Source: Nesterenkonia sp. Act20
Lineage (GTDB): Bacteria; Actinomycetota; Actinomycetes; Actinomycetales; Micrococcaceae
Assembly (NCBI RefSeq): GCF_019173455.1
Contig: NZ_JADPQH010000001.1
Location: 1,268,391-1,332,390 of the forward strand
DNA: 64,000 nt
Direction: 5' to 3'
In this document: in pieces, positions 1,069 through 20,682 of the stretch
Numbering within the stretch: the stretch's first letter is position 1
Layout: each line of letters begins with the position of its first letter
Notes under the pieces: generated by a model
The model's input: only the letters and a program-made list of their open reading frames with translations
What the model was told of the DNA's origin: nothing
Databases searched by the model: none
Made by a program: the position numbers and the translations under genes

Positions 1069-2478
1069 TCAGCTGACTCCCTGCATCTGCGCTGCGGCTC
1101 GCGCATGGCGGGGAAGCACATCGTCGAGCGCGCCCAGCTGGAGCTGGCCGGATTCCACGAGGGACTTTCCGGCGACCATGACGCACCAGCCGCTGGCAGG
1201 GCCCGAGCGCAGCCAGCCTTCGACGGGATCGGTGAGCGCGCCGGCCTGGGAGAGGGGCGCGGATTCCCAGATCACCAGGTCCGCACAGGCTCCAGGACGA
1301 AGGTGGCCGATCTCGTCGGCCCAACCGAGGTTCGCCGCGGATCCGCGAGTGGCCATGGACAGCGCCCCACGTGCCGACATCGCTGAGGGTCCGTTGCGAT
1401 AGCGGGCCAGCAGCATCGCTCCGCGGGTCTCCATCCAGAGGTTCGCCGAGTCGGAGGAGGCCGAACCGTCGCAGCCGAGGCCCACCGCCATGCCCATAGA
1501 GCGCAGCGCCTGGGCGTCGGCGGTGTCACCGGCGAGGATCATGTTGGAGCTGGGACACTGCGTCGCGGTGACGCCTGCGGCCGCAAGTCGGCGATTCTCC
1601 TCCTCGTTGCCGTACACATAGTGCGCGACCCAGGACCGGGGCGTGGCCCAGCCGACGTCCTCGAAGTACTCCACGGGGCGCCGCCCGTAGACCTCCAGGG
1701 CGTAGGTGTCCTCGTCCTTGTCTTCAGCGAGGTGGGTATGCAGCCGGACGTCATGCTTCTCGGCGAGCTCGGCGGTCTTGCGCATGATCGACTCGCTGAC
1801 CGAAAACATGGAACACGGCGCCAGTGCCACGCGGGTCATCGCGCCAGGTGTCGGGTCATGGAAGGTGGAGATCAGTCGCTCGGAATCGGCGAGGATGGTC
1901 TCCTCGTCCTGCACCACCGCCTTGGGCGGCAGCCCGCCGTCCTCCACGGAGCGGGTCATCGAGCCGCGGTTGGCCATGAAGCGGAAGCCGATCTCGGTGG
2001 TGGCCTTGATCTGGGCGTCGATCAGGTTCGGCCTCGGGTGCACATACATGTGGTCCGAGGAGGTGGTGCAGCCACTCAGCAGCAGCTCCGCGCAGGCCAC
2101 ATAGGTGGAGAGATAGGTGGACTCTTCGTCCAGCGCCGCCCAGCGCGGGTAGAGGGTGGTGAGCCATTGGAAGAGGCTCCCATTGATGGCCGGGGCGAAG
2201 GCCCTCGTGAGGTTCTGGTACATGTGATGGTGCGTGTTGACCAGACCCGGAGTGATGAGCCGACCGCCGGCGTCGATCACTCGCTCGGCCGCCGGAGGCT
2301 GCACCGACCTCGCCCCAGCACTGTGCACCCGCCCGGCATCGAGAGCGATCCACCCGCCGTCGATCTCCCGGCCGGCCTCCAGCGCCTCCTGCTGCGCCTC
2401 GGGTCCCTCAGTCGCGACGTCGAGCACGATATAGGCGTTGGTGATCAGCGTGTCGACGCGCAGTGCGGCGGGGGGCAT
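1069..2478 (-). CDS. Amidohydrolase-superfamily deaminase (guanine/8-oxoguanine deaminase-like)
   Basis: 469 aa; metal-binding motif GLVNTHHHMYQ, later HTHLAED and DGSASSD motifs typical of the guanine/cytosine deaminase subfamily; position at the head of the purine cluster. Confidence 0.6.
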   Translation of the reverse strand: MPPAALRVDTLITNAYIVLDVATEGPEAQQEALEAGREIDGGWIALDAGRVHSAGARSVQPPAAERVIDAGGRLITPGLVNTHHHMYQNLTRAFAPAINGSLFQWLTTLYPRWAALDEESTYLSTYVACAELLLSGCTTSSDHMYVHPRPNLIDAQIKATTEIGFRFMANRGSMTRSVEDGGLPPKAVVQDEETILADSERLISTFHDPTPGAMTRVALAPCSMFSVSESIMRKTAELAEKHDVRLHTHLAEDKDEDTYALEVYGRRPVEYFEDVGWATPRSWVAHYVYGNEEENRRLAAAGVTATQCPSSNMILAGDTADAQALRSMGMAVGLGCDGSASSDSANLWMETRGAMLLARYRNGPSAMSARGALSMATRGSAANLGWADEIGHLRPGACADLVIWESAPLSQAGALTDPVEGWLRSGPASGWCVMVAGKSLVESGQLQLGALDDVLPRHARAAAQMQGVS

Positions 2479-2656
2479 TCGTCCTCCTGAAGTTGATTGA
2501 CCCCAACCTATGAAACAGATGTTTCTTCCTTCACTCGGCTCGGTTACGGATATGTAAATGCCGGAGCGCGTAACGGCGCTGTAACCCGCGCTTGCCTAAG
2601 CTGGAGCACGATTCCAGCTCATGGCCGCAGCGCCGCGCACTCCCGGAGGAGGCACC

Positions 2657-3700
2657 ATGCTCGACCGCATCACCTCCTACAGCTCCTGCCTCGACGACCC
2701 CGAACACTGGGCGATAGCAACAATCGTTTCGGTGCATGGCTCCTCGCCCAGCCCGGTGGGCACCTCGATGGCGGTCTCTGCCGACCTGGAGATCATCGGC
2801 TCACTCTCCGGGGGCTGCGTGGAGTCCTCGGTGGCCGCATCCGCCCAGGACGCGATCGCTGCCGGGACCGTCCGCCGGGAAGCCTTCGGACCCGACGGCA
2901 CCCCGTTCGGTCAGGCTGGCCTCGGAATCGCGTTGACCTGCGGCGGCGAGATCGAGGTGCTCATCCAGCCCCTGGTGACCGCCGAGCTGGATACGCTGCG
3001 TGAGCTCGCGGAGCGGGATCCACACGTTCCGGCGGAACTGACTCGGATGGTGACAGATCACGCGGGGACCCGTCTGGTCATCCGGGAACAGCGCGCCGGC
3101 TCGCCGCGGCTCATTCTCAGCGGAGTCCATGACTTCTCCACCCAGCTGGCTCAGCTCGCACTGCAGATCGGCTGGAACGTCCACCTGGTGGAGATCCGCC
3201 CCGCCTTCGGCACGCCCGAGCGCGTCCCCACCGGAGCGCAGCTGCACCTGGGACACCCCGGCACGATCATCGCCGAGCTGCTGCAGGACGAGGCCGCGGC
3301 CTGGACCGGTGTGGTCGTGATGACCCACCACCCGGATCTCGACGTCCCGGTGCTGGACGCGGCGCTGAGTCTGGCGAACCGGGCGGACTGGGTCAACGAT
3401 GCCGACGACGACGCAGCCCGCTGCTTTATCGGGGCCATGGGTTCACGCACCTCAGCGGCACGCCGAGACGCCGCACTGCGCGCCATGGGTCACAGCGAGG
3501 CCGCCCGCGAGCGCGTGGTCTCCCCGCTGGGACTGGACTTGGGCGCCGAGACGCCCGGAGAAGCGGCAGTCTCGATGCTCGCCGAGCTCCTCGCAGCGAA
3601 GAACTCCCAGACCAGTGCACAGCCGCTGAGCCTCAGCGAAGGACCGATCAATGCGTCTCGGCCGCGCAGCATCAGCATCATCAGAGAAATGGCAGTGTGA
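2657..3700 (+). CDS. xdhC: XdhC/CoxI-family molybdoenzyme maturation factor
   Basis: GGAGGAGG RBS immediately before ATG 2657 (track ORF begins earlier at 2621). N-terminal XdhC_CoxI domain and C-terminal Rossmann-like XdhC_C (AVSADLEIIGSLSGGCVE...GGEIEV...); stop 3 nt before the XDH gene. Confidence 0.75.
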   Translation: MLDRITSYSSCLDDPEHWAIATIVSVHGSSPSPVGTSMAVSADLEIIGSLSGGCVESSVAASAQDAIAAGTVRREAFGPDGTPFGQAGLGIALTCGGEIEVLIQPLVTAELDTLRELAERDPHVPAELTRMVTDHAGTRLVIREQRAGSPRLILSGVHDFSTQLAQLALQIGWNVHLVEIRPAFGTPERVPTGAQLHLGHPGTIIAELLQDEAAAWTGVVVMTHHPDLDVPVLDAALSLANRADWVNDADDDAARCFIGAMGSRTSAARRDAALRAMGHSEAARERVVSPLGLDLGAETPGEAAVSMLAELLAAKNSQTSAQPLSLSEGPINASRPRSISIIREMAV

Positions 3701-3703
3701 ACC

Positions 3704-6700
3704 GTGGACATCACCAGTGTTGAGACGACCCTGAGCACCGCGGATCCGGAGGATTTCGAGCCCGGGGATTCCAGGCTTGCCGGAGGCACGGTGCTCTACT
3801 CCTATGGCTATGACTTCACGAACCCCGCCCCGCGCAGGCTTCTGGACATCACTGCTGCCGGGTGGGCACCCCTGACCTGGCACGAGCAGGACGCCGGTCA
3901 GGGATGGACGGGCTTGGAGATCGCCGCCACCACGACCATCGCGCAGTTCCACGCCGCCGCCTCGTCTCTGGCCGGGACCGGTGCCGAGGGGCTGCCCGGC
4001 ATCAAGCTCATGGAGGCTGCCGCAGAGTGCTTCGTAGCCTCCTGGAAGGTGTGGAACAGCTCCACCGTGGGCGGCAATGTCGCTACTGCGCTGCCGGCGG
4101 GACCGATGACCTCCTGGCTCTCCGCCATGGAGGCTCAGGCTGTGATCTTTTCCCCCGGCGGGACCCGACGTACCGCGTTGGTCTCGGATCTGGTGCTCGG
4201 CACAGGGTCCACCGCCCTGGAGTCCGGCGAATTAATCCGCGCCTTCTTCGTGCCCGTCAGCGCGCTGGCGCGCCCCACGCTGATGGTGCGGGAATCGCTG
4301 ACCCGCTACGGCCGGTCTGCCGCCCTGCTGCTCGCCTCCCCCCTCCCTGGTGGGGCCCACGGCACCGATCAGGTGCGTCTCACCATCACCGCCAGCACGG
4401 TGCATCCAGTGATCCTGCAGCTTTCCCGCGATGCTGCGGTGGACACCGGAGTGGCGGCCGCAGTGCGCGCCGGGGTCCCCGAGTCGACGTGGAATGACGA
4501 TGTCCATGGCGACCGCGAGTGGCGCATCGAGGTCACGATCCGGCTCGCGCAGGAACTTGCAGAGGCGATCTTCAGCCAGGAGCGCGCCTCTGCACTCGCG
4601 CCACAGGGTGCGGAGGCATCCTCTGCCCAGGCGGAGCTCCCCGAGCCGACTCTGCTGAGCACACATGCTGCGGCCGGGCAGCCAGCCCAGCCAGCCCAGG
4701 TCACGGTGGACGGCAGGCAGCTCGCCTTGGACGCTGATCCCGGGCAGTGCCTGCGCACCTGGCTGCGGGACACCGGCGCGGCCGGGGTCAAACGCGGTTG
4801 TGACGCCGGAGACTGTGGGGCCTGCACCGTGCATCTCGCCCAGCCCGGGCAGAAGCCGACCGCGGTGCACAGCTGCATCGTCCCGGCGCAGCGCGCCGCG
4901 GGAACCGAGGTCACCACCGTGCAGGGGCTGAGTCCGGAAGCCACCGCCCAGGTGCTGTCCTCCCAGCAGGAAGACGGTGCATCACATGATCATGAGGCGT
5001 TCGCGGCCGCCCTGCATCCGACCCAGCGGGACTTCCTCGACTCTCACGGCTTCCAGTGCGGCTACTGCACCGCTGGCTACCTGATGACCGCCACCGCGGA
5101 GAGCCCGTACTCTCCCGGGCCCTCGCCCGCTGACACCAACCCTGGAGGTCCTGCCGAGCGCGAGACCGATGAATCGACCGAGACGGCCACCGGGACGACC
5201 CTGGACGCCGAGGACCCCGCGACGCTTCGTCGATTCAAGGGCAATCTCTGCCGATGCACCGGCTACTGCTCGATCAAGGATGCGCTCACGCAGACCCCAC
5301 GGGTCAGCGCCGAATCAGGCCCCGGAAAGAGCCCGGCACCACCCGCCGGACCCGCCGTGGTCACCGGCACCGCTGCCTTCACCTTTGACCAGGCCGGCGA
5401 GCGACCCCCGGAGGATCCTCTGCACATCGTAGTGATCCGGTCCCCGCATGCCCACGCCCGGATCCAGAACATCGATGCCCGGGCAGCCCTGGACGCGCCC
5501 GGAGTGATCGCCGTGCTCACCCACGAGGACGCCCCCGCTGAGCTCTACTCCTCCGCTCAGCACGAACTGGTGGAGGATGACCCCGCGGACACCCGGGTGC
5601 TCGATGACGTGGTCCGCCACGTGGGGCAGCGGGTCGCCGTCGTCGTCGGGGAATCTCGTCGACAGGCCGAACGCGCCGCGAAGCTGGTACAGGTGGACTA
5701 CGAACCGCTTCCCGCAGTGCTGGATCCACGGACTGCACAGGACACAGGGGCCGCTGCGGTCCACGCGGGAAAGGACTCCGCCACGCACCGGATCCTCGCC
5801 CCGAAGAGGAACCTCGTGGCCGTCGCCTCCAGCTCCCACGGCCAGGCCGAGCAACAGCTCGCCTCGCTCCAGCCCTCTGAAGGCGCGGCACTGTCCACGG
5901 GTGAAACGGGCACCTCCTACACCGGCAGCTTCGAGACCCACCGGACCTCGCATGTGGCACTGGAGACCCACGGCTGCCTGGGGTGGATCGATGAGCTGGG
6001 CCGTTTCACGCTGCGTTCCTCCACGCAGGTTCCCTTCCTGGTGCGGCGCACCCTGTGTCGGATCTTCGGTCTCGCGCCGGAGGCGGTGCGCGTCTTCGCG
6101 CCGAGGGTGGGTGGGGGCTTCGGCTCCAAGCAGGAGGTGCTCACCGAGGATCTGGTGCTTCTGGTGCTGCGCACTCTGCATGAGCGCGGAATCGACCGGC
6201 CGGTGCAGCTGGAGCTCACCCGTTCGGAGGCCTTCGCAGCGACCACCACGCGTCACCCCTATCTGATCGACGTCTCGGTGGGAGCCGACGCTGAGGGCGC
6301 GCTGCAGGCCATGCAGCTGCGGGTGCTCTCCGACACCGGGGCCTACGGCAACCATGGGCCCGGGGTGATGTTCCACAGCGTGACCGAGTCCATGCAGCTC
6401 TACTCGGCCCCGCATAAGCAGGTGCACGCCGAAGTGGTCTACACCAACAATCCCCCGGCGGGCGCCTTCCGCGGCTACGGACTGAGCCAGACCCTCTTCG
6501 CGGTGGATTCGGCGATGGACGAGCTGGCCCACCGGCTGGGTCGGGATCCGCTGAGCTTCAAGGCGGCGAACATCATCGCCCAGGGTGAGACCCTCTTCGG
6601 CGCAGAACATGACGATGTGCTCGTGGAGGTGGACGGGCTGCAGCAGTGCCTGGAGATCATCGGCAAGGAGCTGCGCACCGGCGAGCTGAGTGCTGCGGAG

Positions 6701-7702
6701 CTGGCAGAGTGTGAGGGTCTGCTTGCGGAGGAGCGTCACGGTGCTCTCGAGGCAGCGCCCAGCGACGGTCCCGATGAAGCGCCCGACGGCGCGAAAGCTG
6801 GCCTTTCGCTCGGGGACTGGGCGGTGGGCACCGGCACCGCGGTGGCGATGATCGACACCGTGCCACCCAACGGGCATCATTCCCACGCCACCGTCGCCGC
6901 GCTCGGGTCCGGGCGCTACCAGCTCAAGGTCGGCACCGCGGAGTTCGGCAACGGCACCTCCACCGTGCACCGCCAGGTGGTGGCCGAGGTGCTGGGCACC
7001 ACCGCCGAGAAGATCCACCTGGTCCAGGCCGACACGGACGCCGTGCGTTTCGACACCGGCGCCTTCGGCTCCACCGGCATCACGGTCGGGGTCAAGGCAG
7101 CCCATGCCGCCGCGGAAGATCTGCTCAAAAAGCTCTCCGCCAATCCGGAGGCGGACCCCGCCGGGCTCATCGGCGAGGGCACCTGGTCCGGCACTCCCCG
7201 CTCGGTCTCGTTCAACGTGCATGGTTTCCGGATCGCGGTGGACCGGCGCAGCGGGACCCTGCGCATCCTGCAGTCGGTGCAGGCCGCCGACGCCGGCGTG
7301 GTGCTCAATGAGGCGCAGTGCCGCGGACAGGTCGAAGGCGGTGTCGCCCAGGCGCTGGGCGCGGCGATGTTCGAGGAGCTGGAGATCGATCAGGACGGCG
7401 CCGTCACCACCGACATCCTGCGCAATTACCACATACCCCAGATGGCAGACGTGCCGCGCACCGAAGTCCATTTCGCCCAGACCCGCGATCCCATCGGACC
7501 CCTGGGTGCCAAGTCGATGTCCGAGGCACCGTTCAACCCTGTCGCACCGGCGCTGGGCAATGCGATTCGCGATGCCACCGGGGTCCGCATGACGCGCACG
7601 CCCTTCCGCAAGGACCGGATCGCGGCGGCCCTGCGGAACGCGGAGCTCAGCAAGTCCGGCCTCAGCGAGGCGATCTCTCAGTCCGAGATCTCTGGAGCCT
7701 GA
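3704..7702 (+). CDS. Xanthine dehydrogenase/aldehyde oxidase-family molybdoenzyme, single 1332-aa polypeptide with FAD - [2Fe-2S] - molybdopterin domains in CoxM-CoxS-CoxL order
   Basis: GTG start. N-terminal ~300 aa CoxM-like FAD-binding domain; residues ~330-530 with two [2Fe-2S] motifs ([14 protein letters not shown]; [12 protein letters not shown] ... [11 protein letters not shown]); C-terminal ~780 aa a/b-hammerhead plus Moco-binding large-subunit fold ([17 protein letters not shown]...GGGFGSK...). Translationally adjacent to xdhC. Confidence 0.8.
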
Positions 7703-8376
7703 GCGGCGCGCCACCGCAGCAGGTCCTCAGGCGTGTCGATGTCGGCGGCTTCGGCGCAGTCGGTGAGGTCGATGGCGTCGAGGAGCTCGGGATGGTCGCG
7801 CAGATACGCCCGGGCACCCTCGTCCTGCTGCGCGGCGGCTGCGGCGTCGAGAGCGGCGCGGATCTCGAAGACCACGGGGTGCGTGGGGCGTCCCTGAACC
7901 ACACCGCGCGCAACGCGACCGGGACGGTGCGCGTCGAGGACCCTGCGCAGCGCCTCCGCCCCGATGCCCGGCTGGTCCACCAGAACGACGGCGACCCGGT
8001 CAGCCCGGCGGTCACGGGCAGCCTGGATTCCAGTGCGGAAGGACGCCGAGAGCCCTCGATGCCAGTTCGGGCAGACCACGACCTCCGGGGCTATGGCAGA
8101 CGCTTCGCCCAGCGCTACCGCTTCGTCCAACACTGCGAGGGCCTCCTCGGCGCGGTGGCCCAGCACCAGCAGCGGGACAGTTCCTGCATCCGTCGCCGCC
8201 TGCACCGCGCGCTGCATCAGCGTTCTGCCGTGCACACTCACCAGTGCCTTACCTCGAGAACCGAGCCTGCTTCCCTCCCCTGCGGCGAGGATCACCGTCA
8301 CCGTCCTCAGGGGTTCGGGGTCGGGCCCCAGGGCAGCCGGGCGCGGCACGAGCTGCTGTGGACCCGTCACTGCCAT
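7678..8376 (-). CDS. mocA: MocA-like molybdenum cofactor cytidylyltransferase (MobA-like NTP transferase)
   Basis: Start at internal ATG (rc 8374-8376) of track ORF 7678..8484. [15 protein letters not shown] ... VLVDQP motifs of the MobA/MocA nucleotidyltransferase fold; consistent with MCD-type Moco required by CoxL-type enzymes. Confidence 0.65.
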
Positions 8377-8389
8377 CTTGCACCCTCGC

Positions 8390-8662
8390 TCAGGCGCGCT
8401 CGTTGGCGGCTTGACCCAGCGCGATGAGCTTCTCTCCCAGACCGTAGCTGCGGTCGGCGAGCTGGCGGACATAGCCCTTGGCAATCATGGTGCGCAGCAG
8501 CCTGTGCGCGGTCGGCGCGGGAAGATGAGTCTGTTCTGCCAGTTCGCTGAGGCTCATCTGGCCACCGTGGGCACCGATGGCTTCGAGGATGTCGAACGCC
8601 CGGTCCACTGACTGCACCTTGCGTGGTCCCTCGGTCATGAGCCGCTCCTTGTCATCGGTCAT
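8390..8662 (-). CDS. IclR-family HTH domain-only protein (90 aa; truncated regulator or remnant)
   Basis: SLSELAEQTHLPAPTAHRLLRTMIAKGYV is a canonical IclR N-terminal wHTH; ORF stops at the linker helix with no effector domain; 13 nt gap to mocA. Confidence 0.5.
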   Translation of the reverse strand: MTDDKERLMTEGPRKVQSVDRAFDILEAIGAHGGQMSLSELAEQTHLPAPTAHRLLRTMIAKGYVRQLADRSYGLGEKLIALGQAANERA

Positions 8663-8667: not shown

Positions 8668-10101
8668 TCAGCGCTTCATCACGCTGAGCGCAGGGTGGCC
8701 GGTGCCGCGGAGGAACTGTCCCACAGGGGCCAGTGCAGTGGTCGTGTCCCGGGCGGTGAACAGCTCGATGCCGCGCAGCACAGCTCCGATCACGGTGCCG
8801 GTGATCTCGAGATGCTCATAGGCAGAGATCGGATTCTTGTGCGCCAGTCCCACGGCGGAGACCACATTGGTCTCCAGCGGGTCATAGATCACCAGGTCCG
8901 CATCCTTACCCGTGGCGATGGTCCCCTTGCGAGTCAGCCCGGCCAGGGTGGAGGTGTTCTGGGCCATCCACCTGCTGACCTGCTCAAGTCCTATTCCACG
9001 CAGCCGAGCTTCATGGGCCACGGCGGAGAATCCCACCTGCAGCCCGGATATCCCGCCCCATGCCTGCTGCAGGTCAGGGGCTCCGCGGTGCTTCTCCTCG
9101 ATCGTGGAGGGCGAATGATCGCTGACCACCGCGTCGATGAGCCCCTCGCGCAGTCCCTCCCAGAGCGCCTCCCGGTTGCCGGTGTCGCGGATCGGCGGGC
9201 AGCATTTGAACTCGGCGGCCCCATCCGGGATCGAGTCGGCGTCGAAGCAGAGGTAATGAGGGCAGGTCTCTACAGAGAGCGGCAGACCTTCAGCGCGGGC
9301 CGCGCCAATGATGTCCAGAGCACGGGCGGAGGCCAGGTGCAGGATATGTGTCCGGCAGCCCGTCTCGCGGACGGCTTCGATGAGATCGCTGATCGCTGCC
9401 ACTTCGGCATCATGCGGGCGGGTGAGCGCCCAGTCCGCGTAGTGGCTGAGCCGGCGTCGTCGGCCGGTGACCTCGGTGGCACGTTCGATCGTCTCGGCAT
9501 CTTCTGCGTGGACGATCACCAGACCGTCGAATCCGGCCACTTCGGCCATCGCCTCGCGCAGCTGCTCGCCGTTCACCGGTGGGAACTCATCCACCCCGGA
9601 GGGCAGCAGGAAGCATTTGAACCCGAAGGCACCGGCTTCCCAGAGGGGCCTGAGCTGGGCGGTGTTGCCGGGGATGATCCCTCCCCAGAAGCCGACGTCC
9701 ACATAGGTCTGGCCCGCAGCGGCCTGCTGCTTGATCCGCAGCGACTCCACATCCACCGTGGGCGGGATGGAATTCAACGGCATGTCCACCACGGTGGTGA
9801 CCCCGCCCAGTGCCGCCGCCATGGTGCCGGTGGCGAAGCCCTCCCAGCTGGTGCGGCCGGGCTCGTTGATGTGGACGTGGGTGTCGACGTTGCCCGGGAG
9901 CACCTGGTGGGCGGGCCTGACCACGGTCATCCCGGCGCCGGCGCCGACGTCGCTGGCTTTAACGATCTCGGCCCGCCGCCGACCTTCGCCCGGGCTCAGC
10001 CGATGGATCCGGGCGATCTCACCGTCGAGGATCTCCAGGTGCGCGGGAAGGAACTCTCCTTCGAGCAGCACCTGCTCGGCGATGAGGTGTCGCAGCGTCA
10101 A
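8668..10101 (-). CDS. allB: Allantoinase (cyclic amidohydrolase)
   Basis: Track ORF 8668..11100 is an over-extension; probable TTG start at rc 10099-10101 overlapping the permease stop (TTGA). 478 aa; DTHVHINEPGRT metal motif, carbamylated-Lys region FKCFL, dihydroorotase/allantoinase fold. Confidence 0.75.
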   Translation of the reverse strand: MTLRHLIAEQVLLEGEFLPAHLEILDGEIARIHRLSPGEGRRRAEIVKASDVGAGAGMTVVRPAHQVLPGNVDTHVHINEPGRTSWEGFATGTMAAALGGVTTVVDMPLNSIPPTVDVESLRIKQQAAAGQTYVDVGFWGGIIPGNTAQLRPLWEAGAFGFKCFLLPSGVDEFPPVNGEQLREAMAEVAGFDGLVIVHAEDAETIERATEVTGRRRRLSHYADWALTRPHDAEVAAISDLIEAVRETGCRTHILHLASARALDIIGAARAEGLPLSVETCPHYLCFDADSIPDGAAEFKCCPPIRDTGNREALWEGLREGLIDAVVSDHSPSTIEEKHRGAPDLQQAWGGISGLQVGFSAVAHEARLRGIGLEQVSRWMAQNTSTLAGLTRKGTIATGKDADLVIYDPLETNVVSAVGLAHKNPISAYEHLEITGTVIGAVLRGIELFTARDTTTALAPVGQFLRGTGHPALSVMKR

Positions 10102-11588
10102 CGTTCTGCCTCCTTCTCGGCGAGGGTCTCGGCCCCAAGGGCGGGGGCAACGTCTGTGGTCGGTCCAGCCGTTCCCGGCATCTCCGCTCCGACTTCGGCG
10201 ACCTTCGGGGTGGTAGGGAGCACGGCGTTCAGGAGGACGGCGGCGAGCATGGCCGGCACGATGCCCGAGGTGAGCAGGAGCGCGATGTCCGGGTGGAAGG
10301 CGGCCGTGACCTCCTCGGAGGCGAAGGAGAATCCGATGCCCAGGCCCAGCGAGACGGCGACGATCAGCATGGCCCGGCGGTCGAGGACTTGGCTGCTGAC
10401 CACCTGGATCCCTGCGGAGGCCACCATGGAGAACATCACCAGCACCGCTCCGCCGAGCACGGCGTAGGGGATGGTGCTGAAGAAGGCCGCGAACTTCGGC
10501 ACGAACCCTGCCAGAAGCAGCATGCCCCCGGCCATGGCGACCACGAAGCGGCTCACGACGCCGCTGAGCACGACCACGCCGGTGTTCTGGCTGAAGGTCG
10601 TGTTGGGCATCGCACCGAAGAGCGCTCCCAGCGAAGTGCCCACCCCATCCGCCATGACGCCTCCGCTGAGCTGGCGGGAGGTGGGTGATGCCCCGACGGC
10701 GGTCCGGGAGACGGCGGTGAGATCTCCGATGGACTCCATCGAGCTGGCCAGCGCGATGACGGTGATCGCAATGATGGCGGCTCCGGTGAAGTCCATGCCG
10801 AAGTGCAGCGGGGTCGGGGCGAAGAACCAGTCCGCCTCGGCCACGGCGGCGAGGCTGACCATGCCGAAGGCTGCCGCCACGGCGTAGCCGGTGAGCAGAC
10901 CGATCAGCACTGAGGCCACGGAGAGGAAGCCCTTGCCGAACTGGTTGCACAGCACGGTCACCACGACCACCAGGGCTGCGATGCCGAAGTGGAACAGCGC
11001 CCCATAGTCCCCGGCGCTCTGCGCCGGGGCACCGCCTGCGGCGTAGTCGATGGCGGTGGGCATGAGCTTGATGCCGATGATCAGGATGATGATGCCGCAC
11101 ACCAGGGGCGGAAAGAGCCGTGAGATCCAGTGCAGGGCACCGCCGAAGATCACCTGCACGAAGCCTGCGACGAAGGCGCCGCCGAAGACCGCCGCGATGC
11201 CGAACTCCTGAGCGATGGGAATCGCCACCGCCAGGAACGCGAAGCTGGTGCCCTGCATGACGGGCAGCCGAGATCCCACGGGCCCCAGACCCAACGTCTG
11301 CAGCAGCGTGGTCACACCCGAGACGATCATGGCCAGCTGCACCAGCAGCGTGGTCTCCCCGGTGGTCATCCCGATGGCGGTGGCCACGATCAGGGGAGGC
11401 GCCGCATTGCCGACGAACATGGCCAGCAGATGCTGGACCGCCAGCGGAGCTGCGCGGTGCAGCGGGGGCAGCTCATTGACCCGGGCGACCGCCTCGGCCG
11501 CAGTGACCTGCGAAGCAGTCGCGCCGCCGTGGGTCGAGCCCTCGGCCGTATCCGTGGTGTGAGGGGAGGCAGTGGTCTCGGCAGGCAT
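10098..11588 (-). CDS. Nucleobase:cation symporter-2 (NCS2) permease, xanthine/uric acid type
   Basis: 496 aa, ~12-14 predicted TM helices, NCS2 signature regions (VLGGAVLVMF..., QNTGVVVLSGV). Confidence 0.8.
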   Translation of the reverse strand: MPAETTASPHTTDTAEGSTHGGATASQVTAAEAVARVNELPPLHRAAPLAVQHLLAMFVGNAAPPLIVATAIGMTTGETTLLVQLAMIVSGVTTLLQTLGLGPVGSRLPVMQGTSFAFLAVAIPIAQEFGIAAVFGGAFVAGFVQVIFGGALHWISRLFPPLVCGIIILIIGIKLMPTAIDYAAGGAPAQSAGDYGALFHFGIAALVVVVTVLCNQFGKGFLSVASVLIGLLTGYAVAAAFGMVSLAAVAEADWFFAPTPLHFGMDFTGAAIIAITVIALASSMESIGDLTAVSRTAVGASPTSRQLSGGVMADGVGTSLGALFGAMPNTTFSQNTGVVVLSGVVSRFVVAMAGGMLLLAGFVPKFAAFFSTIPYAVLGGAVLVMFSMVASAGIQVVSSQVLDRRAMLIVAVSLGLGIGFSFASEEVTAAFHPDIALLLTSGIVPAMLAAVLLNAVLPTTPKVAEVGAEMPGTAGPTTDVAPALGAETLAEKEAER

Positions 11589-11729: not shown

Positions 11730-12656
11730 TCAGGCGAAGCCGCCGATCCATTCCCAGGCCTGCGGTCGCGCAGGCGCTGCCCTGCGGGTGACGGAGGCGT
11801 TCATCAGACCGTAGGGGCGGTCCCCCGCCTGGAAGACCTCATTGGGGTTCTCCAGACCGAAGGGACTCAGGTCCACCACATAGTGATGATTGTTCGGCAT
11901 CACGAACCGGATGTCCTCGATCTCCTCCACTGCACCGAGCACGGCCTCGCCTGCGGCGTAGAGCGTCTGCTGCAGGGACAGCGAGTGGACCAGCGCGAAC
12001 TGCTCCATCACGATCTGCTTGACGCGCGCGTAGAGGGCGTCGAAGTCGACCTCCTGTGCGTCGATATCTGCGGCGAAGAGCCAGCGGGCGGTGATGTCCG
12101 TGGCCATCACCCGGTCCCGGGTCTCGGGCAGCGTGGTGTACCGGTCCTTCGGATACCCGGAGAACTCGCTGCCGGTGGTCTTGAGGACGGTGAGGTCGCT
12201 GAATCCGCCCATCAGGTGCTCGTCACCATCCTGGATGGTCAGCGCCGCGGTGCGGATCTCCTGCTTGGACTTCACGAAGGAGTGCTCGTGTTCGGTGAGC
12301 GCACCATCGGACCCCGGGACCTGGATCCGTTCCCAGGGGTAGGACTCAGCACTCCAGCGGCCGCCGTCGACCTCGGCATACTCGACGAAGTGGCGTCCGA
12401 GCAGCAGCAGGAACTGCTCCGGGGTGCTGATCCCGTGCTCCTTGGCGAAGGCGTAGACGGTGTTCTTCTGGGTATCGGTGGCGATGACCCTGCTGTTGTC
12501 ACCCTCGGTGTAGCAGTCGGTGAAGTCTCCACGCAGCATCGAGCTGACGTTGAGATCCATGAGCGTGTGGACCGGGGTGTCCCGGTTCACCCGGACCACG
12601 CGCACCTCGGCCTTCCCGTACTGGTTGGGGCCAAGGACGACGTCGGGACTGCTCAT
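11730..12656 (-). CDS. Urate oxidase (uricase)
   Basis: 308 aa; YGKAEVRVVRV and TQKNTVYAFAK motifs of factor-independent uricase (tunnel-fold). Confidence 0.85.
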   Translation of the reverse strand: MSSPDVVLGPNQYGKAEVRVVRVNRDTPVHTLMDLNVSSMLRGDFTDCYTEGDNSRVIATDTQKNTVYAFAKEHGISTPEQFLLLLGRHFVEYAEVDGGRWSAESYPWERIQVPGSDGALTEHEHSFVKSKQEIRTAALTIQDGDEHLMGGFSDLTVLKTTGSEFSGYPKDRYTTLPETRDRVMATDITARWLFAADIDAQEVDFDALYARVKQIVMEQFALVHSLSLQQTLYAAGEAVLGAVEEIEDIRFVMPNNHHYVVDLSPFGLENPNEVFQAGDRPYGLMNASVTRRAAPARPQAWEWIGGFA

Positions 12657-12756: not shown

Positions 12757-13083
12757 TCAGCTGCCCCGGTAGGTGCTGTAGGCGAAGGGGCTCAGCAGCA
12801 GGGGCACGTGATAATGCGCAGCCGAGGCCTCCACAGCGAAGGTCAGCGTGACCTCAGGGAAGAAGTGATCCACCGCGCGGGACGCGAAGTACTCTCCGGT
12901 GCCGAAGACGAGCCGGTGCGCACCTTCGGGCAGCGTCTCGGGTCCCAGCTCCGTGATGCGACCATCGGCGTCGGTGGTTCCGGAGGCGATCTGCGCCCCC
13001 TCGGGCCCCAGCAGCTGCACGGTGATTCCTCGTGCCGGAGTCCCGGTGGTGGTGTCCAGGACATGGGTGGTGATGAGACTCAT
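12757..13083 (-). CDS. 5-hydroxyisourate hydrolase (transthyretin-like)
   Basis: 108 aa from internal ATG of track ORF 12757..13179; MSLITTHVLDTTTG... and C-terminal YRGS tetrapeptide diagnostic of HIUase. Confidence 0.85.
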   Translation of the reverse strand: MSLITTHVLDTTTGTPARGITVQLLGPEGAQIASGTTDADGRITELGPETLPEGAHRLVFGTGEYFASRAVDHFFPEVTLTFAVEASAAHYHVPLLLSPFAYSTYRGS

Positions 13084-13111
13084 CGTGGCTCCTCTGCCTT
13101 GTTTCAATCTC

Positions 13112-13999
13112 TCAGCGTTCGAGCTCGTCGAGTTCGTCGTAGGCTTTCGCGATGGCGGAGATGCGCTTCCGGCCAGCACCGAGCTGCCGGTTGAGCACCC
13201 CGTTGGCGAGCAGACTGACCAGGGTCATCGCCGCCGCGTAGCTGTCGAAGGCACCTTCCGAGTCGATGGGGCATTCGATCCAGCAGTCGGCCTCCATGGC
13301 GTAGTGCCGGGAGGTGCTGTCGCCCAGGCAGAGGAGCTGGGCTTCGGAGGACGCCACCGCCCGGACCGCCTTGCCGAAGACCACGGGACGACGGCGGAAG
13401 CCCACCGCCACCACCAGATCCCCGGCTCCGATGCCGGCGAGCTCCTCGCCCAGGGTCTGACCGGGCTGGGGTGCGATCCGCACCCTGGGCCGGGTCTGGA
13501 TGAGCTGCTGGTGCAGATGAAGCGCCACCGGGTAGCTGTTGCGCAGCCCGAGCAGGATCACCCGTTCGGCGCTCGCGAGCATCTCCACCGCCTGTTGAAG
13601 CCTGCCATCGGCCAAGCCTGCGGTCAGCCGCGCGAGGTTATCGTGGTCGCGCGCCTCGTGACGCTGCATTCCGGTGGAGCCTTCGGTGTCGGCGGAGGTC
13701 ACCGGCGCAGCTGTGGGGACTCCTCGGCTGCGCAGCGCGCGAGCGTGATCTTTGACCTCGCGGAAGTCCTCGAAGTCGAGCTTGCGGAACAGCCGAGATA
13801 CCGTGGCCTTCGAGACGCCCGTCTCGCGACTGATATCTGCTGCGGAGAAGATGGCCAGGTCGCCCAAATGCTCCAGCAGGAAGTCAGCCACTCGCCGCTC
13901 CTGCGGGGCCAGCGCCCCGTAGTGGGCGTCGATCCGGGCGTCGATGCGCGTCTCGGGTTCGAGCGGGGGCTGGTTCGCGGCCTCCGGTGGCGGGGTCAT
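13112..13999 (-). CDS. RpiR/MurR-family transcriptional regulator (HTH_6 + SIS domain)
   Basis: 295 aa; N-terminal HTH (AADISRETGVSKATVSRLFRKLDF), C-terminal SIS sugar-phosphate-binding domain; ATGA overlap with upstream allC. Confidence 0.75.
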   Translation of the reverse strand: MTPPPEAANQPPLEPETRIDARIDAHYGALAPQERRVADFLLEHLGDLAIFSAADISRETGVSKATVSRLFRKLDFEDFREVKDHARALRSRGVPTAAPVTSADTEGSTGMQRHEARDHDNLARLTAGLADGRLQQAVEMLASAERVILLGLRNSYPVALHLHQQLIQTRPRVRIAPQPGQTLGEELAGIGAGDLVVAVGFRRRPVVFGKAVRAVASSEAQLLCLGDSTSRHYAMEADCWIECPIDSEGAFDSYAAAMTLVSLLANGVLNRQLGAGRKRISAIAKAYDELDELER

Positions 14000-15249
14000 C
14001 GTCCTGCTCGCTCTCCGTGCTCACGTGCAAGCACCCAGACAGCTTCTTGCAGCGCCTGCAGAGCCAATGCCACATCGGCGGAGATGACGTTCTCCTCCGG
14101 GTGGTGGCTGATGCCGTCCTCGCAGCGGGTGAAGAGCATGCCGATCTCCGTCACCGCCGCCATCGCCATGGCGTCGTGCCCAGCACGCGAGTACAGGGTG
14201 ATCGGGTCGGCGTCCCCGGTGGCGGCCACGCCGGCCGCGAGCGCTCGCGTCATCCGCGGCGAGCAGCCCACGGTGGACGCGGCGTGGATCTCTTCGACCA
14301 CCAGCTCCAAGCTGCGCTGGGCGCAGAACCGGCTCAGCGCAGCGTGGATCTCCTGCCAGGCGGTGTCACGGAGCTCATCAGATTCGGCGCGCAGGTCCAG
14401 GGAGAAGTCGGCCTCTCCCGGCACGACGTTCACCGCACCGGGACGGGTCTCCAGCTGACCGACCGTGGCGATAACACCGCGCTCACGGCCGATCCGTTCC
14501 ACGTCCAGGACTGCCTGAGCGGCCCCGACCAGTGCGTCCCGCCGGCGTTCATAGGGGGTGCCCCCGGCATGCCGGGCCTCACCGAGGATGGCGAGCCGAA
14601 AGCGGCGCGCCCCGGCGATGGAGCTGACCAGCCCCAAGGCCCGATCGGCCGCTTCGAGAGAGGGGCCCTGCTCGATATGGGCTTCGAGGTAGCCGACCAG
14701 ATCCTCAGGCGCCCGGGCGGCGTCGTCGACCTTCTCTGGATCCAGGCCGAAGTCCCAGAAGGCCTGAGCCATGCTGATCCCCTCGGCGTCCACGGCCTCC
14801 CACCAGGCGGGGTCCCAGGTGCCCGCCATGGCACGTGATCCCAGCAGGGTCGCGCCGAACCGGGTGCCCTCCTCATCGGCGAAGGCGATGATCTCCACGG
14901 CGAAGGGAAGGTCCTTCGCGTAGGGGGCCAGCAGACGGACCGTCTCGATTCCCAGCAGCACACCCATGATGCCGTCATAGCGTCCGGCATCGGGAACGGT
15001 GTCGAGGTGGGAGGCGATGATCAGCGCCGGCAGGCCGGGCTCGCGACCCTCGAGCCGAGCACACTGGTTGCCTGCGGCGTCCTGCCAGGTCTCCATCCCC
15101 ACCTCGGCCATCCACGCCGCGGCGAGTGCATTGTGCCGCTGGTGCTCTTCGGTCAGGTAGGCGCGCAGGATCCCGTCGGGGAGAGCGCTGATCGCGGCAA
15201 GCTCGTCACAGCGGGTCATGATGCGGTCGGCCGCAGCGTCGAGGGTCAC
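13996..15249 (-). CDS. allC: Allantoate amidohydrolase (M20 family, AllC-like)
   Basis: 417 aa M20/M28 peptidase-like with dimerisation insert; strongest resemblance to allantoate amidohydrolase/N-carbamoyl-amino-acid hydrolases; context. Confidence 0.7.
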   Translation of the reverse strand: MTLDAAADRIMTRCDELAAISALPDGILRAYLTEEHQRHNALAAAWMAEVGMETWQDAAGNQCARLEGREPGLPALIIASHLDTVPDAGRYDGIMGVLLGIETVRLLAPYAKDLPFAVEIIAFADEEGTRFGATLLGSRAMAGTWDPAWWEAVDAEGISMAQAFWDFGLDPEKVDDAARAPEDLVGYLEAHIEQGPSLEAADRALGLVSSIAGARRFRLAILGEARHAGGTPYERRRDALVGAAQAVLDVERIGRERGVIATVGQLETRPGAVNVVPGEADFSLDLRAESDELRDTAWQEIHAALSRFCAQRSLELVVEEIHAASTVGCSPRMTRALAAGVAATGDADPITLYSRAGHDAMAMAAVTEIGMLFTRCEDGISHHPEENVISADVALALQALQEAVWVLAREHGERAGR

Positions 15250-16656: not shown

Positions 16657-17151
16657 TCATGAGACGACCTGCTCCAGTCGCAGCACTGCGATCTCGGCGA
16701 GCTGCTCGCGTCGGACGACGGCCTCTTCCTCCTCGGTGTTCTGCAGGCGAAGTTCGAGCTGGGTGCGCATCTCACGGTCTGATCGGCCTGCGGCGCGGAT
16801 CAGGAAGATCCGGTCGAAGCGCTGTTCGTAGGCCTCATTGGCGCTGATCCACTCCGCCTGGGCGGTCTCATCGGCGCCGAGGCTTCCCTGTTCTCGTCGG
16901 GAGGCCTCGGCTTCCCGGGAGGAGCCCTGCACCTTCTCTCCGATCCGCGGGTGATGTTCGAGCGCGCCGTCGACCTCGAGGTCGGTCCAGTCCTGTGCGA
17001 GCTCCGCGGCGGTGGTGGTCAGCTCCGCGACGCTCTCGTAGGGCCTCCGGGCGAGGAGCGCGGCGCGCCAGGAGGGAATGGGCGCGCAGGCGGCGAGCGT
17101 CTCCGTCAGCTCCTCCGGGGTGGCCGCATTGAATTCGCTGAGCTTCATCAT
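16657..17151 (-). CDS. uraD: OHCU decarboxylase (2-oxo-4-hydroxy-4-carboxy-5-ureidoimidazoline decarboxylase)
   Basis: 164 aa (MMKLSEFNAATPEELTETLAACAPIPSW...HPRIGE...); lies in the C-terminal part of the artefactual 618-aa track ORF 16657..18513; ATGA overlap with the amidase stop. Confidence 0.75.
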   Translation of the reverse strand: MMKLSEFNAATPEELTETLAACAPIPSWRAALLARRPYESVAELTTTAAELAQDWTDLEVDGALEHHPRIGEKVQGSSREAEASRREQGSLGADETAQAEWISANEAYEQRFDRIFLIRAAGRSDREMRTQLELRLQNTEEEEAVVRREQLAEIAVLRLEQVVS

Positions 17152-18395
17152 CGGATCTCCTGTGTCGACGGCAGCCGGGCGTGGAACTCCTGCGCCCAGC
17201 GGATGAGTGCACGGTCGCTCCCGGCAGCCCCGAGCAGGCAGACGCCGGTGGGAAGTCCCGCTGCCGTGCGCAGCGGGACATTGACCGCGGGCAGCCCGGC
17301 CAGACCGGCCAGGCAGGTGAGCATCATGGTGCCGCGGCGGTGTTCCTCGATGACTTCTCCGCCCAGTGCGGCCTCGCTGCGCAGCGGTGCGGGACCGGCC
17401 GCCGAGGGAAGCGCCAGCACGGAATCGCCGACCCAGTCGCGGATGATTCGGCGTGCCCCGGCGGCCAGCGCCCGGGCCTGCCGCTCCTGATCTGCGGTGA
17501 ACTGGCGGGCCGTGCGGAACCGCGCGCCGACGTCGTCGGCCATCGCCTCCCAGTGGGTGCTGACCCATTCGCCGTGGTTGGCCCAGGCCTCGCGCATCTG
17601 GATGATGCGGAAGGCCTCGAACCAGGCGGCGTGCATCTCCGGGGAGACGCCGGCGATCCGCCTCAGGTGCAGGCGTGGTGGCAGGGCGCTCGGAGGCGCG
17701 GTCACACCGTCCACGGCGGTGCGCACGGCGTCGGCGACCTCCGGCTCCACCTGATCGAAGAGGCCGGGGAGGAGCGTGAGCTCTTCCGGGAGTGCGGCGG
17801 GCTGCTCCGTCTCCGCGCCGGCGGGCAGGAGCACCTCGGCCACGAGGCTCAGCGTCGCGGCGTCGCGGGTCATCCAGCCCACCGCGTCGAAGCTCTGCGC
17901 AAGTGGCAGCAGACCCTCGCGGGAGATGGCGCCGTGGGTGCTGCGTATGCCCCAGAGCCCCTGGTAGGAGGCGGGCACGCGGATCGACCCACCGGTGTCG
18001 GTTCCCAGCCCGATGCTCACCTGACCCAGTGCGACGGCGGCGGCGGAGCCCGAGCTGGACCCCCCGCTGATCCGGTCGGGGGCCGCCGGGTTCGGCGGTG
18101 TCCCGTAGTGCTGATTGGTTCCGGCCAGGGAGAGTGCGAACTCGTCGGTCTGCGCGATCCCGGTGATCGCGGCGCCTGCCTCGAGCAGCTGTCTCACGGG
18201 GGGCGCGGTGCTGGTCTGCTCGGGGGCCTCGGCCAGCCAGGCGGGGTTGCCGGCACCGATGCTGTGTCCCGCAATCGCGTAGAGGTCCTTGACGGCGACG
18301 TTCTGCCCGCCCAGCGGTCCGGTTCCGGAAGACGGGATCAGCGGGGCATCGGGGTCCCCACCCACCCGCCAGATCGTGGGCTCTGCTGTGCTCAT
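17148..18395 (-). CDS. Amidase-signature (AS) family amidase
   Basis: 415 aa with GGSSSGSAAAVA AS-signature and catalytic Ser-cisSer-Lys context (KDLYAIAG). Confidence 0.7.
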   Translation of the reverse strand: MSTAEPTIWRVGGDPDAPLIPSSGTGPLGGQNVAVKDLYAIAGHSIGAGNPAWLAEAPEQTSTAPPVRQLLEAGAAITGIAQTDEFALSLAGTNQHYGTPPNPAAPDRISGGSSSGSAAAVALGQVSIGLGTDTGGSIRVPASYQGLWGIRSTHGAISREGLLPLAQSFDAVGWMTRDAATLSLVAEVLLPAGAETEQPAALPEELTLLPGLFDQVEPEVADAVRTAVDGVTAPPSALPPRLHLRRIAGVSPEMHAAWFEAFRIIQMREAWANHGEWVSTHWEAMADDVGARFRTARQFTADQERQARALAAGARRIIRDWVGDSVLALPSAAGPAPLRSEAALGGEVIEEHRRGTMMLTCLAGLAGLPAVNVPLRTAAGLPTGVCLLGAAGSDRALIRWAQEFHARLPSTQEIR

Positions 18396-19486
18396 CGCAG
18401 CTCCGCGAAGTCTCGGACGGCCACCCGCGCGTGGACTCCTTTGACCAGGTCGACCACCTGGGAGATGTTGAAGTCCGTGGCCGCGGAGAGATAGGCGTAG
18501 GCATGCTCTGCATCGAGGCCCCAGCGGGCCTGCAGCAGCACGATCGCGTTGCGCACGCAGTTCTGCACGGCGATGTCCAGGTCCTCGTCCATCCCGGTGG
18601 GGATGAGGAACTCCGCGGTCTCGGCCAGCGGCCCGATCTGTTCGCCGAAGGCGGCCAAGGCCTGTTCCCGAGGGATGACCTCGAAGCTCAGCAGCCCGCG
18701 CAGGGAGGCCTCCATCGCGGTGAGCGCGACCTCGCCGTCGCCCTGGGCGAAGTGGGGATCGCCCACGTAGGCCAGCGCGCCGGGCACCTGCACGGGCAGG
18801 TAGAGCGAAGTTCCCTCGGTGAGCATCTTGATGTCGATATTGCCGCCGTGGGCCCCCGGCGGCACGGAATGGGGACGGGCCTCCCCCGCTACCGCCACCC
18901 CGATGGTCCCGAAGAAGGGAGCCAGCTCGAAGCTCAGCAGCCTCTCCGCTCCGGTGCGCGGGGCCATACGGCCGCGAGCCTGACCCTGACCGGCCTCTTC
19001 CACGGCGGCGAAGATCGAGACGTTGCGTTCTCCGCGCGGGTACTCCCCGTTGAGCGCTCCCTTGCCGTGGCGGTTGGAGATGATGCCGTAGGGGACGCGG
19101 CGCTGCAGCTGCTTGATGGTCACCTTGAGCAGGTCGCCCGGCATGGCGCCCTCGACATGGAGGGGGCCGGTGTTCACGTGCGGGCCGTCGACGGCGGGGT
19201 CTCGCGGGTGGTCGCTTGCTGCGAGCGCGATCGCGTCGGTGAGCACCTGATCCTCGGGCACGCCGTGTCCGCCGAAATAGGCCAGCGGGTCCCGTCCCTG
19301 ATCCTCGAGAATGCCCTCATGAGAGAGTGTGTCGATGACGACCTGCTCACCGGACTCGATGTGCAGCGCCGGCTCATCGGCGGCGCAGGGCAGCCTCCCC
19401 CAGAAGATGTTCTCCGGGCGCGCCGGGAGGTAGCGGGCACCCTCGGGCAGGTGTTCGCCGGGCTGCAGGATGGGCTGCGGGCTCAT
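18392..19486 (-). CDS. Acetamidase/formamidase (FmdA/AmdA)-family hydrolase; first gene of the long minus-strand operon
   Basis: 364 aa; FmdA_AmdA fold motifs (HGGNIDIKMLTEGTSLYLPV, GDPHFAQGDGE); ATGA overlap with amidase start. Confidence 0.7.
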   Translation of the reverse strand: MSPQPILQPGEHLPEGARYLPARPENIFWGRLPCAADEPALHIESGEQVVIDTLSHEGILEDQGRDPLAYFGGHGVPEDQVLTDAIALAASDHPRDPAVDGPHVNTGPLHVEGAMPGDLLKVTIKQLQRRVPYGIISNRHGKGALNGEYPRGERNVSIFAAVEEAGQGQARGRMAPRTGAERLLSFELAPFFGTIGVAVAGEARPHSVPPGAHGGNIDIKMLTEGTSLYLPVQVPGALAYVGDPHFAQGDGEVALTAMEASLRGLLSFEVIPREQALAAFGEQIGPLAETAEFLIPTGMDEDLDIAVQNCVRNAIVLLQARWGLDAEHAYAYLSAATDFNISQVVDLVKGVHARVAVRDFAELR

Positions 19487-19560
19487 GGATCACTCTCCTC
19501 GTTCCGATCAGTCTGCCCGATCAGGTGTTACAGCAGAGTGACATCTCTGGAATGTCCGTT

Positions 19561-20667: not shown

Positions 20668-20682
20668 CCGATCACCCTAACC

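Follow-up and report, generated by a model that had tools for sequence, protein, structure and literature searches.

A Nesterenkonia xanthine dehydrogenase-family protein with FAD, [2Fe-2S], and molybdopterin domains in one chain, a likely in-frame fusion of two genes

The xanthine oxidoreductases (XORs) and aldehyde oxidases of eukaryotes are single chains of ~1330 residues that carry four redox centers in the order iron-sulfur (FeS), flavin adenine dinucleotide (FAD), and molybdenum cofactor (Moco) domains. Their cofactor is molybdopterin (MPT) and not a dinucleotide. Bacterial relatives of the CoxMSL/CutMSL, QorMSL, and KdhMSL type are separate polypeptides acting on other substrates, and their genes are arranged in the order medium (M, FAD), small (S, FeS), and large (L, Moco) subunit. 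Escherichia coli has two further arrangements: XdhABC (b2866-b2868) is a multisubunit enzyme with the gene order L-M-S, whereas in ygfM-xdhD (b2880-b2881) an M gene overlaps by 4 nt a gene in which S and L are already joined (S-L), within a purine-related cluster that includes mocA, guaD, and xanQ. The same S-L fusion is found in the aldehyde oxidoreductase of Desulfovibrio gigas (MOP; 907 residues), which has no FAD domain at all and uses aldehydes as substrates. Here we describe a gene at positions 3704-7702 of a 64,000-nt stretch of the Nesterenkonia sp. Act20 genome (contig NZ_JADPQH010000001.1, positions 1,268,391 to 1,332,390; hereafter, the window), the product of which joins all of these domains in the order M-S-L.

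The gene is one unbroken open reading frame (ORF) of 1332 codons (1332 residues) with a GTG start codon, and neither a stop codon nor a frame change occurs at either domain junction. The initial annotation of this DNA had described an uninterrupted GTG-started ORF with an FAD region, two [2Fe-2S] motifs, and a Moco region in that order, read through in one frame at the expected subunit boundaries, and the ORF and the Pfam matches agree with it: FAD_binding_5 lies at residues 69-185, Fer2 at 333-379, Fer2_2 at 435-528, Ald_Xan_dh_C at 570-670, and MoCoBD_1 at 739-956, and MoCoBD_2 extends to 1251. The gene and its parts are as follows.

3704..7702, plus strand: fused FAD-[2Fe-2S]x2-Moco xanthine dehydrogenase-family gene (ORF, Pfam, identity to public protein P0001)
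3704..4579, plus strand: CoxM-type FAD-binding domain, residues 1-292 (profile matches, AlphaFold2 [AF2] and Foldseek, 49% identity to standalone FAD subunits)
4580..4696, plus strand: linker between the FAD and FeS domains, residues 293-331, rich in Ala, Pro, Gln, and Ser, with an LPEPT motif (alignment, AF2)
4697..4939, plus strand: plant-ferredoxin-type [2Fe-2S] domain, residues 332-412 (Pfam Fer2)
5012..5293, plus strand: second [2Fe-2S] domain, residues 437-530 (Pfam Fer2_2)
5294..7699, plus strand: FeS-to-Moco linker and molybdopterin part, comprising the hammerhead, MoCoBD_1, and MoCoBD_2 (Pfam, PDB alignments)

The GTG codon at 3704 is located 3 nt past the stop codon of the upstream xdhC-type gene, and the N-terminus MDITSV of homologues throughout the genus favors it as the start. 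P0001, the public protein of Nesterenkonia sp. Act20 (100% identical, 1323 residues, named "molybdopterin cofactor-binding domain-containing protein"), starts 9 codons further down, with CTG read as Met. Third codon positions have a G+C content of 0.82-0.90 across the main folded domains; the value is 0.77 for the short C-terminal Fer2_2 segment and 0.69-0.79 for the linkers and insertions, and all of these segments share one frame. The protein shares with eukaryotic XOR a single chain of nearly equal length, the four redox centers, the fold of the FAD domain, and homologous Moco domains, whereas the classical order (FeS-FAD, then Moco) is replaced by FAD-FeS-Moco; the two orders point to independent, permuted fusions. 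The M-S-L domain order equals the gene order of the CoxMSL-type enzymes, the medium subunits of which are closest to its FAD domain in both profile and fold, and residues 333-1311 align to residues 6-906 of MOP.

Independent assemblies of at least 13 Nesterenkonia species contain the fused ORF, as do several metagenome contigs, and every Nesterenkonia match was fused. These proteins are 1243-1369 residues long and 53-89% identical to the Act20 protein, and they are found in N. halotolerans, N. lutea, N. sandarakina, N. jeotgali, N. aurantiaca, N. ebinurensis, N. muleiensis, N. alkaliphila, and N. populi, as well as in N. flava (from the genome scan described below). Because the same indel error could not have arisen in all of these separate assemblies, the fused ORF is not an assembly artifact, which answers the concern over frameshift errors raised in the initial annotation. 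We consider it likely that 3704-7702 encodes a true one-chain enzyme, a molybdenum hydroxylase of the xanthine oxidase family, that arose from two genes by in-frame fusion.

Relatives outside Nesterenkonia are mostly ~910-960 residues long and have only the FeS and Moco domains. In this split layout, which is common in Micrococcales and Streptomyces, a gene for the FAD domain (~280-330 residues) lies directly 5' of the FeS-Moco gene, with the two overlapping or at most ~8 nt apart. Such orthologues have the same neighborhood, active-site motifs, and cysteines as the fused protein (49% identity in the FAD part and 48-53% in the S-L part), but they are two polypeptides and lack both the linker and the Nesterenkonia-specific insertions of the FeS and Moco parts. 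In Arthrobacter sunyaminii (L003), for example, an amidohydrolase gene on the minus strand is followed by xdhC, a 287-residue FAD_binding_5 gene, and a 941-residue FeS-Moco gene, and the locus is also near genes for uricase, hydroxyisourate (HIU) hydrolase, OHCU decarboxylase, and a permease. A second assembly likewise has the order xdhC, FAD gene, FeS-Moco gene, so that the synteny is that of the window. The standalone FAD subunits of an Arthrobacter and of one more assembly share 49% identity with residues 1-292 over the full length of this region. At the A. sunyaminii junction, the FAD stop codon and the likely S-L start codon overlap in GTGA, with AAGGAGG just before. Among 70 split junctions, 21 have an ATGA or GTGA overlap, 10 have a slightly longer overlap scored as TTGA (mostly reading ATGGCAATTGA), and 39 are of other kinds, in most of which 1-3 nt separate the two genes, as in TGAgcATG.

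The frequency of the fused state was estimated by scanning GTDB species, each represented by one genome, with an FAD-domain alignment as the query; 80 loci were kept from 600 matching stretches, and 78 of these loci had a complete M reading frame, so the ratio of fused to split loci describes a sample and not a census. Ten of the 78 complete loci were fused (5 in Nesterenkonia, 4 in Arthrobacter, and 1 in Streptomyces) and 68 were split. The fused Arthrobacter loci are those of A. nanjingensis, sp. SW1, sp. RAF14, and sp. NPDC090010. A search of a 50%-identity representative library with the FAD domain gave one fused representative (P0026) among the top 150 matches; this result was kept out of the estimate because the Arthrobacter and Streptomyces fused forms are absent from it, probably inside clusters represented by S-L proteins. 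The initial annotation had allowed that the fused architecture might prove common and annotated. Fused proteins are indeed already public, with their Pfam domains visible and under generic names, but the fused form is the minority state in the sample.

A three-gene coxMSL operon was considered as the immediate ancestor and rejected, since S and L are already fused in the ~910-residue Arthrobacter and Streptomyces proteins and in E. coli XdhD. The initial description of a fusion in CoxMSL gene order is thus correct for the order of the domains but not for the ancestor, which had two genes, M and S-L. Judged by sequence comparison, only the M/S-L junction is new in Nesterenkonia, and the S-L junction, shared with XdhD and MOP, is old.

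The FeS and Moco parts are well preserved. The ligands of the first cluster are Cys366, Cys371, Cys374, and Cys391 (C-X4-C-X2-C-Xn-C) and those of the second cluster are Cys452, Cys455, Cys516, and Cys518 (C-X2-C-Xn-C-X-C), and all eight are invariant in 21 fused proteins. The Moco part contains 803-GGGFGSKQE-811, 921-AFRGYG-926, and 1270-KSMSE-1274; GGGFG[GS]KQE, AFRGYG, and KSMSE are kept in 114-117 of 120 relatives, fused or split (KSMSE in 114). The catalytic glutamate of the family is located near the C-terminus (Glu1261 in the bovine enzyme and Glu869 in MOP), and in the PDB alignments Glu1274 of KSMSE corresponds to the catalytic glutamate of MOP (GVGELP) and Arg923 to the MOP arginine in AFRGYG. 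The Pfam scores exceed the gathering cutoffs (Ald_Xan_dh_C [hammerhead], 92.5 bits; MoCoBD_1, 220.3 bits; MoCoBD_2, 152.3 bits), and PDB matches to 4-hydroxybenzoyl-CoA reductase (4-HBCR), MOP, CoxL, and QorL have E values of ~1e-59 to 1e-50. The Moco domains, the two [2Fe-2S] clusters, the catalytic glutamate, and the CoxM-type FAD domain place the protein in the xanthine oxidase/molybdenum hydroxylase family. It lacks the hallmarks of an aerobic carbon monoxide dehydrogenase (CODH): a regular-expression search of the fused protein found neither the form I active-site loop (VAYRCSFR) nor that of form II (AYRGAGR), and its scores on CODH NCBIfam models are far under the cutoffs.

Lineage-specific insertions of low complexity or acidic composition were observed at 4940-5011 (between the FeS domains), 5102-5227 (in the Fer2_2 loop), and ~6650-6810 (in the Moco part). 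That in Fer2_2 covers residues 467-508, with an excess of 33 residues; the CGYC-to-CRC spacing is 61, compared with 28 in 95 of 120 relatives, and ranges from 27 to 61 within Nesterenkonia. The predicted local distance difference test score (pLDDT) of the AF2 model is below 50 at residues 468-547.

From its setting, the fused enzyme is probably a xanthine/hypoxanthine dehydrogenase (XDH); the purine-catabolic gene context makes xanthine and hypoxanthine the likely substrates, and the xanthine-to-urate step named in the initial annotation remains the most plausible role in an island for purine, urate, and allantoin degradation. The alternative that survives best is a real fused enzyme that hydroxylates another N-heterocycle or an aldehyde, as do MOP, PaoABC, and the hydroxylases of the nicotine pathway. 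Several observations pull in that direction and away from XDH. No NCBIfam equivalog cutoff was reached by the fused protein: the XdhA/PucD-type models NF043082, NF007426, and TIGR03196 gave 458.6 (cutoff, 780), 429.1 (916), and 293.3 (783.65) bits, respectively, the best being XdhA_XDHase at 458.6. Gln810 occupies the position of bovine Glu802 and Rhodobacter capsulatus Glu232, an alignment for which we presume the bovine motif to be GGGFGGKE, so that the Glu802/Arg880 pair of classical XDH is incomplete, although Arg923 is present. The top PDB sequence matches are 4-HBCR and MOP. The MocA/PucB-like transferase encoded next to the fused gene scores best on NboR, a protein of the nicotine blue pathway (131 bits), ahead of MocA (89; cutoff, 186) and PucB (77; cutoff, 235), all of which are below the cutoffs. 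The fused Streptomyces locus (L075) has no obvious purine context, and a literature search found no biochemical data for the fused protein or a close relative.

However, the gene lies within a dense purine island (deaminase, xanthine permease, uricase, HIU hydrolase, allantoinase, and allantoate amidohydrolase), and the synteny is repeated in split and fused Arthrobacter loci, one fused locus having deaminases, a permease, XdhC, and a MocA-like gene alongside. Two XdhA xanthine dehydrogenase models are the best NCBIfam matches, and the active-site loop of CODH is not present. Glutamine followed by an acidic residue is also found in E. coli XdhA (GGGFGNKQD) and XdhD (GGGFGSKQD), both annotated as purine linked, which assigns the fused protein to that bacterial lineage and not to the Rhodobacter/eukaryote type. 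The two E. coli proteins share the catalytic glutamate motif as well, although the Moco parts are only 29-31% identical and YgfM gives a marginal match to the fused protein, with an E value of 1e-4 for 45 residues. An activity other than XDH is therefore unlikely on these grounds. The sequence comparisons indicate a lineage that is related to XdhA/PucD-type XDH but is not a member of it by the NCBI criterion.

As an XDH, the enzyme would hydroxylate hypoxanthine and xanthine at a sulfurated molybdenum-pterin, probably in the cytosine dinucleotide form, with Glu1274 as the general base. Two electrons would cross the Fer2_2 cluster (Cys452/455/516/518) and then the plant-type cluster (Cys366/371/374/391) to reach the FAD of the N-terminal domain, which would reduce NAD+ or another acceptor. 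The molybdopterin cytosine dinucleotide cofactor, NAD+ as the acceptor, and a homodimeric state are expected by analogy with the family. The initial annotation had predicted this cofactor from the neighboring xdhC and mocA genes; the adjacent transferase scores under the MocA and PucB cutoffs. The three-dimensional arrangement is expected to be that of the multisubunit enzymes, with the ~40-residue linker and its LPEPT patch as the tether from the end of the FAD domain to the start of the FeS domain.

The N-terminal domain is divergent, and several features count against its being a complete FAD domain. The Pfam FAD_binding_5 match is weak, at 45 bits, and covers positions 64-169 of the 170-position profile; the AF2 confidence is low at residues 27-41, beside the AGGT motif; and residue 24 is Arg (AGG, 3773-3775), whereas this position is a Trp with at least 90% conservation among FAD subunits, both fused and standalone. 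In addition, the domain has no Pfam match to CO_deh_flav_C, and a phmmer search of the PDB with the full single sequence gave no FAD subunit at an E value of 1e-5 or less. These observations would suit a decayed, nonflavin remnant on a MOP-like enzyme that uses another redox partner. A degenerate FAD domain was entertained after the phmmer result and dropped when the profile and AF2/Foldseek searches clearly recovered medium subunits. A 13-sequence profile of the N-terminal 292 residues matched FAD subunits in the PDB with E values of 9e-11 to 1e-6, among them CoxM, KdhM, and QorM; the medium subunits matched include those of Mycobacterium smegmatis CO dehydrogenase (9e-11), 6-hydroxypseudooxynicotine dehydrogenase, quinoline oxidoreductase, and nicotinate dehydrogenase. 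R. capsulatus XdhA was matched in its FAD domain, and the alignments extend into the C-terminal subdomain. The AF2 model of residues 1-292 (pLDDT, 81.6; predicted template modeling score, 0.85) superposes over its whole length on QorM, CutM, CoxM, and HcrB in Foldseek (E = 1e-12 to 1e-10; TM score, 0.64-0.70) and thus has the full-domain fold of flavin-bearing medium subunits.

The segments 26-AGGTV-30 and 121-TVGGN-125, which we take to be the counterparts of the FAD-contacting AGGHS and TIGGD segments in the CoxM structure, show little or no variation among relatives of either form, fused or standalone, and Gly27, Gly28, Thr29, Thr121, Gly123, Gly124, and Asn125 do not vary across the fused relatives. 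The mean column identity of the domain is 53-56% in fused and standalone forms, and the standalone orthologue has been kept as a gene in 68 genomes, from which the domain appears to be functional. The profile and the structural model therefore portray a domain that is divergent but complete, and a decayed remnant is very improbable. Arg24 is just ahead of the AGGT motif; the change from Trp may be peculiar to this strain or may reflect an error in the base sequence.

The number of fusions was assessed from neighbor-joining trees of the two halves. In the tree of the FAD domain, the fused loci fall into three separate clades, and those of Arthrobacter and Streptomyces are nested among split congeners. 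In the bootstrapped tree of the S-L part (901 columns, 77 taxa), the fused Nesterenkonia proteins are grouped in 100 of 100 replicates and the fused Arthrobacter proteins also in 100 of 100, whereas a group of all fused proteins and one of Nesterenkonia plus Arthrobacter fused proteins were each recovered in 0 of 100. Since the trees of both halves separate the fused clades and the linkers are unrelated, at least three independent fusions, in Nesterenkonia, in the Arthrobacter clade, and in Streptomyces, are the parsimonious reading of the sequences. One ancient M-S-L fusion that was later undone by many fissions has in its favor that all fused forms belong to one actinobacterial subfamily and that the trees are simple; both are distance based and only one was bootstrapped, which is a weakness of the multiple-fusion reading. 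The single event nonetheless has only a slight chance of being correct, because the fused clades are separately nested in split Arthrobacter and Streptomyces lineages in both trees, all fused proteins never group together, the linkers differ between clades, and the split M + S-L layout exists outside Actinobacteria too (E. coli ygfM-xdhD).

Under recurrent fusion, an adjacent and translationally coupled pair of genes, one for the CoxM-type FAD protein and one for the FeS-Moco protein, would have been joined in frame, for which one small indel close to where the M gene ends would have been enough. Such fusion would recur easily because the M stop codon and the S-L start codon overlap or are within ~8 nt of each other, and tightly coupled overlapping genes may thus be hot spots of recurrent fusion.

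The linker between the FAD and FeS domains is 39 residues long in Act20 and differs in length and sequence among species, always in frame and by whole codons. Its LPEPT motif (4628-4645, residues ~309-314) is kept across the genus, and Pro313 is nearly invariant. In an AF2 model of residues 1-560, which bears on disorder of the linker and not on the path of the tether, the pLDDT is below 50 at residues 295-308 and 320-329 and ~75 around residues 310-319, where LPEPT is located; the linker is accordingly modeled as largely disordered. By clade, the linkers are ~40-70 residues with LPEPT in Nesterenkonia, ~60-90 residues with VVVSGDFWPP in Arthrobacter (L018, L028, L035, and L041), and ~45 residues and proline rich in Streptomyces, with no kinship in sequence or length among the three. 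Most of the fused linkers exceed the M tail plus the S-L head of the split relatives inspected and hence are not simple read-through. Their length hints at a minimum span needed from the C-terminus of M to the N-terminus of S, and LPEPT and VVVSGDFWPP may be docking patches.

That a sequencing or assembly error joined two or three real genes would fit the split majority (68 of 78 loci) and the closeness of split genes, which one wrong base could connect, but this explanation has a negligible probability given the independent assemblies from at least 13 species and several metagenome contigs at 53-89% identity, linkers that differ by whole codons around a conserved motif, and a linker (39 residues here, ~40-70 in the genus) that is longer than the split M tail and S-L head together.

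The fused protein, which would work as other FAD-containing molybdenum hydroxylases do, is an architectural variant and not a new kind of enzyme, and it leaves the view of molybdenum hydroxylase chemistry unchanged. FAD-binding subunits fused to Moco subunits have been stated in general terms to occur in hundreds of bacteria and eukaryotes (PMC6147048), and literature searches for a bacterial single-chain FAD-FeS-Moco enzyme, for XDH of Nesterenkonia, and for the gene structure of actinobacterial xanthine oxidase found nothing specific. The more ambitious interpretation, a functional permuted counterpart of XOR with at least three origins, linker motifs that are selected docking elements, and a gain in assembly or stability from fusion, is doubtful at present; if true, the advantage of fusion would explain why every Nesterenkonia found, members of a salt- and alkali-tolerant genus, has the fused form. 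The family nevertheless offers a natural experiment in chain connectivity, since the four redox centers are connected as S-M-L in eukaryotes and as M-S-L here, whereas most bacteria have M + S-L or M + S + L, and close split and fused relatives are at hand for comparison. A bacterial XDH encoded by a single gene could also be simpler to express for biosensors or biocatalysis than a two- or three-subunit enzyme.

The genes around the fused gene in the window are as follows.

1069..2478, minus strand: guanine/8-oxoguanine deaminase-like amidohydrolase gene, divergent from xdhC (NCBIfam)
2621..3700, plus strand: xdhC-type gene for a Moco insertion/sulfuration chaperone (Pfam XdhC_CoxI and XdhC_C)
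7678..8484, minus strand: MocA/PucB-like nucleotidyltransferase gene, convergent with the fused gene, the 3' end of which it overlaps by 25 nt (Pfam NTP_transf_3)
8390..8662, minus strand: IclR-type ORF of 90 residues with only a helix-turn-helix (HTH) domain and without the usual effector domain (Pfam HTH_IclR, 74 bits)
8668 to ~10090, minus strand: allantoinase (NCBIfam, 488; cutoff, 358)
10098-11588, minus strand: xanthine permease pbuX (NCBIfam, 418; cutoff, 414)
11730-12656, minus strand: uricase (NCBIfam urate hydroxylase, 347; cutoff, 168; Pfam Uricase)
12757-13179, minus strand: HIU hydrolase (Pfam Transthyretin)
13112-13999, minus strand: RpiR regulator (Pfam HTH_6/SIS)
13996-15249, minus strand: allantoate amidohydrolase (NCBIfam, 530; cutoff, 479)

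The Pfam matches confirm the xdhC and mocA genes that the initial annotation had placed beside the fused gene, the latter as mocA-like. Its statement that the fused gene heads a urate/allantoin pathway is right in that the pathway genes are adjacent, but they are on the opposite strand, so they are neighbors and not cotranscribed with the XDH gene, and the link is positional only. The xdhC gene scores under the equivalog cutoffs of XdhC-related NCBIfam models; both it and the deaminase-like gene share their positions with Arthrobacter loci L003 and L028. The amidohydrolase reached 528.7 bits on the 8-oxoguanine deaminase model (cutoff, 532) and 141-146 on guanine deaminase models, and the island may feed 8-oxoguanine as well as guanine into urate.

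The likely true start of the mocA-like gene is the ATG at 8376, and homologues are located 3' of the fused genes at three Arthrobacter loci (L028, L035, and L041) and two Nesterenkonia loci (L004 and L008). The HTH-only ORF ends 13 nt upstream of this ATG, and N. aurantiaca (L004) and N. sandarakina (L008) have the same pair, with the HTH protein 88% identical. The two ORFs had been considered as one frameshifted gene, since tblastn aligned both frames in relatives, but this idea was dropped because the ATG at 8376 gives an ordinary gene pair.

Among the fused homologues, N. populi apparently has two paralogues (P0021 and P0026; 62% and 53% identical to the Act20 protein, and both listed with a longest contig of 2,537,625 bp), which would imply duplication after the fusion. 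Another protein, P0040 (1234 residues), has an N-terminal extension that resembles the C-terminus of an amidohydrolase and a scrambled end of the FAD domain; it looks like a miscalled or frameshifted gene model and not a further fusion. Past the allantoate genes, a run of hydrolase genes on the minus strand (17148-22134) encodes an amidase (NF006169, 402 bits; cutoff, 391), an FmdA/AmdA-type formamidase, an alpha/beta hydrolase, and a Cys/Met pyridoxal phosphate enzyme, and it may extend the island for nitrogen scavenging.

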